Origin: a virus
Lineage: Duplodnaviria; Heunggongvirae; Uroviricota; Caudoviricetes
IMG/VR virus record: IMGVR_UViG_2700989521_000009
DNA: 35,161 nt
Strand: one strand, 5' to 3'
This document shows positions 12,001-15,000 of the stretch, piece by piece. Position 1 is the stretch's first letter; each line of letters begins with the position of its first letter. The position numbers are program-made.

Positions 12001-15000
12001 GAAACGCCTCGCAGAATGGATGGAAGGCAGAATGCCCTCCCGTTACGCGGATACCTGGCAACTGTTACGCACTCTGCCACCCTCACAGATGGACAGGGCT
12101 TCTGCTTATCGGGTGGTATCGGGTGTGTATCAGGCGGCAGGAGGGAAGCGTTACGATCCGCCACAGAAACTTTATTCACTGCGCAATAAGGACAATAAGG
12201 GTAGTAACCTCTTTTTCTCGGAAAGCAGGGATGAATTACTGACAAAGGCGAAAGTCTGGTTTGCAGAGCAGGAGGAAAAATCACAGGCGAAAGGTGATGA
12301 AAAAACAGCGCCTTCACCGGATGACAAAATCCGCTTTGACGTTTACCGGAATACCCGCAGTGGCGATATTTTTATCGCTTACGGTAAAAACAAAATGCGG
12401 GTGAGAGGTGGCTTTAAGTCAGCCAGTGATGCGCGTAAGTACATTGATTCACATCGTGATGAGCTTGTTCGTCATGTGAAGGATATGCGGGAGATTTCGC
12501 GTGAGGAGCAGCGTAACGCCACCAACCGCGACCGTACCGGACCAGAACGCCGTAAAGGGGATGTTTCACCGGAGCAGTTCAGTGATGCGTTTGGTTTCCG
12601 TGGTGTGCAGTTTGGTAACTACGTGGAAGGTCCGCGTCGTCAGGCTGATTTGAACCGGGCTTATGACTCGCTGCATGACCTTGCGGAAGTACTGAATGTA
12701 CCGACAAAAGCGCTTTCCCTGAACGGTCGTCTTGGCCTGGCATTTGGTGCCCGTGGTAAGGGTAAGGCGGCGGCACACTATGAGTCAGGTGAGGTGGCAA
12801 TCAACCTGACAAAAGGTAACGGACCGGGGGCGCTGGCGCACGAATGGTTCCATTCACTGGATAATTATTTTGGTCGTTATGACGTTTCCACTGACGGGAA
12901 GATTACGTCAGGTGGCGACTTTATGACGGAAGCACAGCGTGCCAGGCGCGTATTTAAAGACGGCAGGTATGTTGATGCTGAATATCCGGTACGTCAGGAG
13001 GTTTACGACGCTTTTAAAGGTGTGATTCAGGCCATTAAAAACAGTGACATGCCGCGTCGTTCAGCGCTTCTCGATGAGGTGCGCTCAAAACCGTACTGGT
13101 CAACGGATGTTGAAATGGCGGCACGTGCCTTTGAGCGTTATGTTCAGGATAAGGCGCGTATGGCTGGCGTGGAGAATGATTATCTGGTCAATATCCGTAA
13201 GGCACCTGAGCACAACACAGATAACACCTGGGCTTATCCGACGAATGCGGAACTGGATGGCGGTATTCGTGAGGCATTCGATCACCTGTTCCGCACCCTG
13301 AAAACCCGTGAGACGGACAAGGGCGTTGCGTTTTATTCCCGTAAGGGCGTTACCCGCACACCTGAAGGTAATCTCATTTCGGATGTTAACCGTAGTGCGG
13401 AAGCCAAAGGCAGCCCGGTCCCGCAGGTTGAAGCGGTTGCCCGTGGCGTGATGAGCGGCATTAAGGACAGTGACCTGAAGGTCCGTGTGGTGAAGTCACA
13501 GAAAGAGGCTGAAGCGCTGGCGGGTGAATCGTTCGACGGTTACGGCAGGGTGCACGCATTCTATCGTCCGGATAAACGAGAAATTGTCCTGGTGGCGGAT
13601 AACATCCCTGACGGGCGGACCGTACGCGAGAAGTTGCGTCACGAGATTATCCACCATGCCATGGAGCATGTTGTCACGCCAGCGGAATATCAGACGATTA
13701 TCAAAACCGTGCTGAAAACCCGCGACAGTGATAACGCCACCATCCGTGAAGCATGGCGTAAGGTTGATGCGTCCTATGGTAAGGAATCACCGGAAGTACA
13801 GGCGGGTGAATTTCTGGCACATATGGCGGAGAAACAGCCGAATAAATTCGTGGCGGCATGGGAGCGTGTTGTTGCCCTGGTCAAAGGGGTACTGCGTCGT
13901 ACGGGGTTACTGAAACCGACGGAACTGAACGATATCAGACTTGTTCGCGAGACCATCCGTACGTTAGGCCAGCGTGTGCGGGAAGGTTACACGCCGCGTG
14001 AGGATGGCGCGGGCGCATCGTCTCAGTACTCCCGTAGTGGTAAACCTGATCCGTTCAAAGTGCCGGAAGGTGAGGGTGAACGTTATCGCGATGACCTTGC
14101 CAGAATGATGAAATCTCTGCGTACCACAGATTTAACGGTAAACATCGGGCGTACGCCGCCGGTATTGCGTCACCTTGGTGCACCGGATTTGCCGCTGGTT
14201 ATTTCCCGCGATACTGTGCGGAAGGCCACCAATGGTGTGAAACATGTGGTGCCGATGGATGTTATCGAGAGACTACCGGAACTGATGCACGATCCGGATG
14301 CAATTTACCGTTCCGCGACAGAAAGAAATGCGGTTGTGATGCTGCTTGATGCCGTGGATAAAAATGGTGATCCGGTAGTGTCTGCGGTGCATATGAAGGC
14401 AACCCAAAAACTTCTGGAAGTTAACCGTATTGCTTCTGTTTACGGAACGGAAAACGGGAAAAAACTGAAGAGTATGGAAATGGCTGGCTTAACATTATAC
14501 AGGAGAGAAAAACTAAACCCTGATGGTTCTCTGTACAGAGGGCTCCAATTGCCCAAAGATGAGCACTCCCGTCAGGGTTCTGCGGATAAAATACTCTATC
14601 CTGAAGATATTCGCAAGGGGCCGTATTACTCCCGTACCAGCAGTCTGACACCGGAAGAGACAATTGCATCGCGTTTTGTGCGCCAGATGCAGGATAAATT
14701 CCAGGTGCTGAAAGCTGTTCAGGAGAATATCCGTAAAACTGGTGGAAAAATAGACGACAGTAACAACGCTTATATGGCGGAAGAACTCTTCCACGGGAAG
14801 GCGGAAAACGACCTGAACGTGATGAAGGAGCGCTACGTTCAGCCACTGGCTAAATTACTGGCGGACTACAAAATTGCGCAGGCCGATCTGGATGAGTACC
14901 TCTACGCCCGTCATGCACCGGAACGTAACGCGCATATCGCGAAAATCAACCCGAAAATGCCGGACGGCGGTTCGGGGATGAGCAACGCGGAAGCGGCGGA

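Follow-up and report, generated by a model that had tools for sequence, protein, structure and literature searches.

Polyvalent proteins of phages and conjugative elements, and the metallopeptidase (MPTase) domains of the zincin class that they contain, were described by Iyer, Burroughs, Anand, de Souza and Aravind (Iyer et al., 2017), from whom the concept of processing or effector zincins in such proteins derives. In the phage-type clade of these MPTases, a His ends strand 2 and an Asp lies three residues past HExxH. CLCA_X, a putative family of zincins from phages and plasmids in which the site reads HExxH...D, had been described previously (Lenart et al., 2013); its members are found mostly in phages, prophages and plasmids, often within proteins of more than 1000 aa. 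Two other described proteins are close in kind: the virion RNA polymerase (vRNAP) of phage N4, gp50, a giant protein that is packaged in the capsid and ejected, and ArdC of plasmid R388, which acts in the recipient after DNA transfer and whose C-terminal domain is a gluzincin with HExxH and a Glu helix. Here we analyzed a 35,161-nucleotide stretch of viral DNA, IMG/VR record IMGVR_UViG_2700989521_000009 (hereafter the window), which matches Shigella phage POCJ13 (Sepvirinae) with 100% identity, a short-tailed phage of the Shiga toxin (Stx) phage type. The final gene of its late/tail region, gp71, encodes a protein of 2793 aa that is named 'LPD5 domain-containing protein' in RefSeq. We found two domains in this protein with complete predicted gluzincin signatures, both of kinds already described for giant polyvalent phage and plasmid proteins, and we consider it likely, from sequence comparison and structural models, that the protein is a putative protease delivered with the DNA and acting in self-processing, on host proteins, or both.

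The giant protein contains two HExxH motifs

The gene is located as follows.

8990 to 17371, plus strand: giant gene, POCJ13 gp71; 2793 aa from the likely true start, M14; PHROG 616 aligns with residues 14-2806

Residue numbers are those of the 2806-aa open reading frame (ORF); subtracting 13 gives the 2793-aa numbering from M14. Exactly two HExxH motifs are present in the 2806 codons, HEWFH at aa 1297-1301 (nt 12839-12853) and HEIIH at aa 1564-1568 (nt 13640-13654), and the second site reads HEIIHH and thus fits HExxH and HExxxH alike. An earlier reading of the window from its sequence only had reported both motifs at these nucleotide positions with the same flanks, and the residue positions it gave, 1284 and 1551 of 2793 aa, agree when counted from the annotated start M14 (nt 8990). 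It had also found no Walker A motif and judged a helicase or ATPase role unlikely, a judgement borne out here: neither G-x4-G-K-[ST] nor the relaxed [AG]-x4-G-K-[ST] was found in the whole protein, and no ATPase or helicase family matched it in Pfam or NCBIfam scans.

HExxH is a short motif, and some of its occurrences in large proteomes are random, as noted in the survey of Lenart et al. (2013). With the composition of this protein (40 His, 201 Glu), chance alone would be expected to produce 0.04 HExxH motifs, and at least two occurred in 16 of 20,000 shuffles (0.08%). The motifs are also invariant in distant homologues, and the predicted zincin topology agrees. A chance origin without function, already refuted by the conservation data, was rejected, and we regard its probability as negligible.

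Two checks had been proposed in the sequence-only reading, conservation of the motifs among homologues and prediction of a zincin fold, and the results of both support its suggestion of two zincin-like modules of the polyvalent type. The module 1 motif was invariant in 78 of 78 homologues and the module 2 motif was kept in about 200 of 203 domain instances. The predicted models of both modules showed the zincin order of elements, and the match to solved zincins was clear for module 1 and weak for module 2. The families that had been named as candidates, MPTase-PolyVal, SprT and ImmA/IrrE, did not hold up. When the modules were compared with all of Pfam-A, no zincin model (MPTase-PolyVal, SprT-like, Peptidase_M78/ImmA-IrrE and ATLF included) matched either module at E values up to 10, with the single exception of a sub-threshold match of Peptidase_M76 to module 2 (E 0.09, 13 bits). 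These three families are therefore excluded, and module 1 matches CLCA_X instead. The lack of a Pfam model over either HExxH core, a difference from the proteins of Iyer et al. (2017), was seen with the whole protein, with the single modules (E up to 10), with 44 homologues and with seven further giants containing a module-2-type domain. Single-sequence and profile searches of solved structures (PDB chains) gave no significant or relevant match.

Module 1 is homologous to CLCA_X

Module 1 and its predicted active-site elements are located as follows.

12533 to 13300, plus strand: module 1, CLCA_X-type gluzincin domain (aa 1195-1450), from the end of LPD5 through LPD1; NCBIfam NF041907, E 8e-44
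12776 to 12778, plus strand: H1276, the invariant His closing strand 2 of module 1, from the homologue alignment and the AlphaFold2 (AF2) model
12839 to 12862, plus strand: HEWFHSLD (aa 1297-1304), active-site helix motif HExxHxxD; H, E, W, H and D invariant in 78/78
13112 to 13135, plus strand: EMAARAFE (aa 1388-1395), the 'glutamate helix' of module 1, within LPD1, with E1388 (ExxA) as the predicted third metal ligand; E1388, A1391, R1392 and E1395 invariant

The match to NF041907 (CLCA_X) covered profile positions 3-245 of 250 (243/250) with 149.9 bits, which is below the NCBIfam whole-protein cutoff of 260, a cutoff set for short standalone proteins. Module 1 is thus homologous to CLCA_X, yet the giant protein, in which the domain is embedded in 2793 aa, lies outside the short standalone subfamily that the cutoff defines. 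A homologue search with aa 1200-1720 as the query returned 513 proteins. In the alignment of 78 homologues (~30-60% identity), H1276, E1278, H1297, E1298, W1299, H1301, D1304, E1388, A1391, R1392 and E1395 were invariant. Both hallmarks of the phage-type polyvalent MPTases, the strand-2 His and the Asp after HExxH, are among these residues.

The AF2 model of aa 1200-1470 had a mean predicted local distance difference test score (pLDDT) of 88 and a predicted template modeling score (pTM) of 0.88. Its elements follow the order N-terminal helix, three strands, HExxH helix, insert, and a helix with E1388-E1395; HEWFH lies in the helix of aa 1295-1311, and E1388-x-x-A1391 on the helix of aa 1386-1404. 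The best structural matches were solved zincins and were clear, the strongest being bona fide peptidases. Identity to anthrax lethal factor and Pro-Pro endopeptidase (PPEP), which are M34-like gluzincins, was only 12-15%, a resemblance at the level of the fold and not of the family.

Pfam splits this unit (window 12533-13309), with the last part of LPD5 and all of LPD1 flanking an HExxH core that has no model, whereas the CLCA_X model spans all of it. Pfam LPD1 is the glutamate-helix half of the module 1 zincin, and the end of LPD5 is the start of the zincin; annotation would thus gain from treating them as pieces of a single CLCA_X domain. Residues 1195-1467 of the orthologous 2806-aa VT2phi_272 protein are listed in the supplement of Lenart et al. 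(2013), and module 1 in this protein family was thus already catalogued in 2013.

Module 2 represents a second gluzincin-like family

Module 2 lies downstream of module 1.

13442 to 13894, plus strand: module 2, second gluzincin-like domain (aa 1498-1648), of a family without a Pfam or NCBIfam model
13640 to 13657, plus strand: HEIIHH (aa 1564-1569), active-site motif of module 2, from the motif scan and the family alignment
13808 to 13819, plus strand: EFLA (aa 1620-1623), ExxA on the predicted glutamate helix of module 2; family consensus EExxA

About 45 of the first homologues contained a second HExxH 230-270 residues downstream, aligned with HEIIH. In the trimmed module 2 alignment (A3), H, E and H were invariant, and four sequences had an extra residue (HExxxH), a variant also known from the polyvalent MPTases of Iyer et al. 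(2017). The A3 profile, searched against 1.84 billion cluster representatives (50% identity), gave 3908 matches at E <= 1e-3 and 393 at E <= 1e-10. Among the top matches, proteins of 1000-5300 aa predominated, and the 141 proteins examined had one to four copies each. Among the 189 domain matches in these 141 proteins, 117 had HExxH, 64 HExxxH, six both and two neither. A 203-row hidden Markov model (HMM) alignment kept the motif in almost every row (H 202/203, E 202/203, H 203/203), and the downstream EExxA was also well conserved (Glu 173/180, Ala 165/180).

The AF2 model of module 2 had a pLDDT of 70 overall and of 85-95 in the core, with the same order of elements as module 1; HEIIHH falls in the helix of aa 1555-1574 and E1620-x-x-A1623 in that of aa 1614-1628. 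Foldseek comparison with the PDB gave no significant match for module 2, and the model-based support for a zincin fold is weaker here than for module 1. Long linkers of low confidence flank the modules in the predicted models. The two modules align weakly with each other, in register at HExxH (hhalign P 4.8e-4; HMM cross-match i-E 8e-7). An initial 97% hhalign match between them was rejected as an artefact, in which the module-1 tail of the homologues aligned with the query's first module-2 helix (alignment A2). No Pfam or NCBIfam model covered module 2, either here or in the other seven giants that were scanned. Module 2 adds a new and well-supported case to a known kind, and with ~3900 clusters at 50% identity it brings to light a very large zincin family, specific to polyvalent proteins, that lacks a public model. 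Judged from alignments and predicted models, both modules have the complete gluzincin signature, namely an active-site helix after a three-stranded sheet and a downstream ExxA glutamate helix.

N4 gp50 has a single HExxH (HELVH at 2228), which is in register with the module-2 HMM in a weak match (i-E 1.7e-4). It lies upstream of the C-terminal region required for encapsidation, and module 2 is equivalently placed. N4 gp50 differs in that BLASTP found no similarity elsewhere and in that its cargo is an RNA polymerase rather than the LPD5, CLCA_X and MuF-C of the Stx phage.

The zincin-containing region of N4 gp50 is needed for encapsidation, and the protease site of ArdC is dispensable for the anti-restriction phenotype. 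Both observations would suit an alternative in which the zincin fold and metal site are retained in one or both domains, whose function would instead be a non-peptidase chemistry, such as that of a metal-dependent nuclease or oxygenase, or mainly a structural or encapsidation role. However, the full signature (H, E, H and the Glu on the next helix) is near-invariant in hundreds of diverged copies, which a purely structural role would not call for, and the strongest structural matches are bona fide peptidases. We consider this alternative improbable.

The zincin modules are shared with other giant proteins and with conjugative elements

The remaining domains of the giant protein are as follows.

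9452 to 10501, plus strand: N-terminal Gly/Ala-rich backbone region (aa 168-517), 28% identical to the Vibrio phage D62 giant protein
11693 to 11986, plus strand: start of a transferable cassette (aa 915-1012), aligning with the N-terminus of ~870-aa conjugative-element proteins
12140 to 12589, plus strand: Pfam LPD5 (aa 1064-1213), E 5.7e-45
inside module 1, plus strand: Pfam LPD1 (aa 1374-1453), from the Pfam scan
14237 to 14500, plus strand: Pfam MuF_C (aa 1763-1850), from the Pfam scan
14645 to 17362, plus strand: C-terminal module (aa 1899-2804, including LPD38 at 2489-2694), common to giant virion proteins of several viruses

The presence of LPD5, LPD1, MuF_C and LPD38 together with two zincin modules makes this a polyvalent protein in the sense of several unrelated domains joined in one chain. 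Its architecture, its late-gene context and its packaging all fit the phage-type polyvalent proteins of Iyer et al. (2017), the main text of which does not mention Stx phages. A literature search on LPD5, LPD1 and LPD38 found no experimental work.

Giant proteins of Vibrio, Ralstonia, Burkholderia (Bcep22), Bacillus and Methanosarcina viruses end in a counterpart of the C-terminal 917 aa. The giants Bcep22 gp75, JC1 gp69 and that of D62 share the conserved C-terminal ~900 aa with 27-41% identity to the Stx-phage giant, lack cysteine and, like gp71, are encoded by a gene that closes the virion module; JC1 gp69, a homologue of Bcep22 gp75, has been found associated with the virion by mass spectrometry. 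The D62 giant (3066 aa) resembles ours in the N-terminal region (28% identity), module 2 (32%, HEILAH) and the C-terminal module (41%), and has no LPD5, module 1 or MuF-C. In Bcep22 gp75 (4602 aa), a module-2-type domain at 3510-3648 (HEAFH) immediately precedes the C-terminal module, and the cargo differs, being annotated as DarB-like, of helicase/methylase type. Module 2 and the C-terminal ~900 aa thus make up a dyad, which other giant virion proteins have as well. The two parts adjoin each other in D62 and Bcep22 gp75, and in the Stx lineage MuF-C is inserted between them.

The stretch of aa 915-1730, comprising an N-terminal motif, LPD5, module 1 and a module-2-type domain, also exists as ~870-aa proteins of Firmicutes conjugative elements. 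Their genes lie near those of type IV secretion, sitting between TrbL/VirB6, M23 or SLT genes on one side and MobA/MobL relaxase genes on the other. The nearly invariant motif IxDFGExIxGA[RK]K (aa 917-929, window 11699-11737) opens the cassette and lies near the N-terminus of the ~870-aa proteins; one possibility is that it is a transfer or recognition signal. Sequence comparison across these proteins shows module 2 with the C-terminal ~900 aa as a conserved delivery backbone and LPD5 with module 1 as a cargo shared with conjugative elements.

Two smaller observations were made at the conjugative loci. A small TnpV-family gene always comes right after the gene of the ~870-aa protein (L003:10001-12625 and L005:10001-12619), and the MobA/MobL relaxase beside it has a weak or faint LPD7 match.

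The giant protein is packaged in the virion and lacks cysteine

Phage phi24B encodes an orthologue, vb_24B_48, with a full-length identity of 95.8%, in which the two motifs occupy identical positions. In a phi24B preprint (2026), where the protein is gp47, it is an abundant virion protein without cryo-electron microscopy (cryo-EM) density and is proposed to be an ejection protein. According to the supplement, gp47 gave 10,962 peptide-spectrum matches (PSMs), second only to the capsid protein, and 11-35 copies per virion were estimated. Most gp47 PSMs came from the four uppermost gel slices, higher in the gel than the peak slice of the portal protein, with a tail into slices 5-9. The gp47 peptides, for which the peptide table gives total PSMs per peptide and not per gel slice, spanned aa 133 to aa 2673 and included both zincin modules. 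Because the PSMs were mostly of high molecular weight and the peptides came from all regions, the whole giant protein is packaged, largely unprocessed. Together with the virion-gene context of gp71, the packaging of the orthologue places the protein in the phage-type group of polyvalent proteins of Iyer et al. (2017).

No cysteine occurs in the 2793 aa, against ~38 expected from the window's other ORFs (P ~3e-17). Also free of cysteine are the giants of Vibrio phage D62 (3066 aa; locus L006:2506-11706), N4 (gp50, 3500 aa; L007:14524-25026, minus strand) and Bcep22 (gp75, 4602 aa; L008:1904-15712). The absence of cysteine may reflect unfolded passage through the tail and periplasm.

Cysteine is likewise missing from the products of the three ORFs that immediately precede the giant gene (6277-6933, 6930-7382 and 7655-8920, plus strand). 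Their phi24B counterparts, gp51, gp50 and gp48, are virion proteins with an estimated 20-40 copies and a cryo-EM copy number given as 'ND'. These three ORFs may encode further internal or ejection proteins.

The virion zincins were also considered as the cause of the slow cleavage of the decoration protein gp84. This was rejected, as gp84 is on the capsid exterior and the purified protein cleaves itself, as stated in the phi24B preprint with reference to Franke et al. (2020).

The phi24B preprint assigned a 'metallopeptidase' to MuF-C and suggested peptidoglycan degradation. The corresponding proposal is that an envelope-degrading activity, on peptidoglycan cross-links or envelope proteins, allows the ejected giant protein to build a periplasmic channel. 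In favor of it, the giant protein is an internal virion protein of a short-tailed phage that needs a conduit across the envelope, and Pfam detected no other muralytic domain in the giant protein. However, MuF-C is, according to Iyer et al. (2017) and Pfam, a C-terminal PBECR domain (barnase/EndoU/colicin-E5-like, a predicted RNase) and not a peptidase, so that the attribution in the literature, with its assumed cell-wall target, needs correction. The zincin modules are similar to such protein endopeptidases as lethal factor, PPEP and neprilysin, and not to the M15 or M23 cell-wall peptidases, and the giant protein showed neither HMM nor fold similarity to cell-wall hydrolases of the SLT, M15 and M23 types. 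Moreover, the cassette of LPD5, module 1 and module 2 occurs in conjugative elements whose gene set already includes SLT and M23 enzymes, and the polyvalent protein P0144, which has a module-2-type domain, carries SLT and Peptidase_M15 domains of its own. Envelope degradation by the zincins is accordingly a doubtful explanation, to which we give little weight.

Proposed roles of the two zincin domains

With moderate confidence, we propose that the giant protein is a cysteine-free, capsid-packaged and ejected polyvalent protein with two intact predicted gluzincin domains, of which module 2 would be self-cutting and module 1 an effector. The protein would pass unfolded through the portal and tail together with the DNA, and it would refold, bind metal and become proteolytically active only once inside the recipient cell. 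There, module 2, as part of the delivery backbone, would most likely cut the giant protein at its disordered linkers and free the cargo, and module 1 with LPD5 would most likely act in trans as an effector protease against recipient-cell proteins early in infection.

Several observations weigh against this proposal or restrict it. N4 vRNAP is packaged unprocessed and the virion protein of phi24B is mostly large; hence any self-processing must follow ejection. The precedent of ArdC, whose metalloprotease site is dispensable for the known function, means that a zincin can be conserved in such proteins without being essential. The ~870-aa conjugative proteins contain no other recognized cargo, which argues against a purely self-processing role.

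The last point bears on the alternative that both zincins act solely on the giant protein, in cis or between copies, for maturation or processing, with no host substrate. Self-processing is the main hypothesis of Iyer et al. (2017) for polyvalent-protein zincins, and P1 DdrB is processed before packaging; moreover, the modules are flanked by long low-confidence linkers, and the PSM tail in gel slices 5-9 of phi24B could represent fragments. However, standalone CLCA_X proteins of ~250 aa, like the ~870-aa conjugative proteins, have nothing else to release, most of the phi24B PSMs are in the top slices with peptides from every region, and N4 vRNAP is not processed before packaging. We therefore regard action on the giant protein alone as unlikely, and favor self-cutting by module 2 combined with an effector role for module 1.

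A broader version of this proposal, which we put forward as speculative and rather unlikely as a whole, is that module 2 and the C-terminal ~900 aa are a widespread self-releasing delivery chassis, in which the zincin would be silent in the capsid and would free a swappable cargo in the host, where the cargo protease would destroy a host defense or regulatory protein. If true, it would extend to the ejected giants of short-tailed phages, namely those of Stx phages, Vibrio phage D62, the Bcep22/Ralstonia phages and perhaps N4. The Stx-phage cargo would then be LPD5 with the CLCA_X protease plus MuF-C, and the cargo protease would influence Stx-phage infection and lysogenic conversion.

Stx-converting phages generate new Shiga-toxin-producing strains of E. 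coli and Shigella, and the predicted metalloproteases provide concrete candidate catalytic residues for mutants, E1298 and E1565. The general picture of polyvalent proteins established in 2013-2017 is unchanged by these results, and the underlying idea dates from 2017.

Start site and ORFs within the giant gene

The ORF finder placed the start at the first ATG, at 8951, giving a frame of 2806 codons (window 8951-17371, plus strand). M14 (nt 8990) is more likely the true start, because GGAG lies 5 nt upstream of it, the PHROG 616 alignment begins at residue 14, and ATG 8951 lies within a terminator-like hairpin.

8953 to 8980, plus strand: terminator-like hairpin (8953-8972) with a T7 run; 7 bp stem, 6 of them G-C; between the upstream stop (8920) and the start at 8990

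Codons 1-13 of the 2806-aa ORF overlap the hairpin, and the element may adjust the expression level of the giant gene inside the late transcript.

Long antisense ORFs are present within the giant gene, at 10127-10660, 11546-12061 and 15553-16062, all on the minus strand. The phi24B record lists similar antisense ORFs as genes, and in the phi24B virion proteome the internal ORFs detected at the giant locus, on either strand, had 1-2 PSMs each only. The antisense ORFs inside the giant gene are probably not genes.

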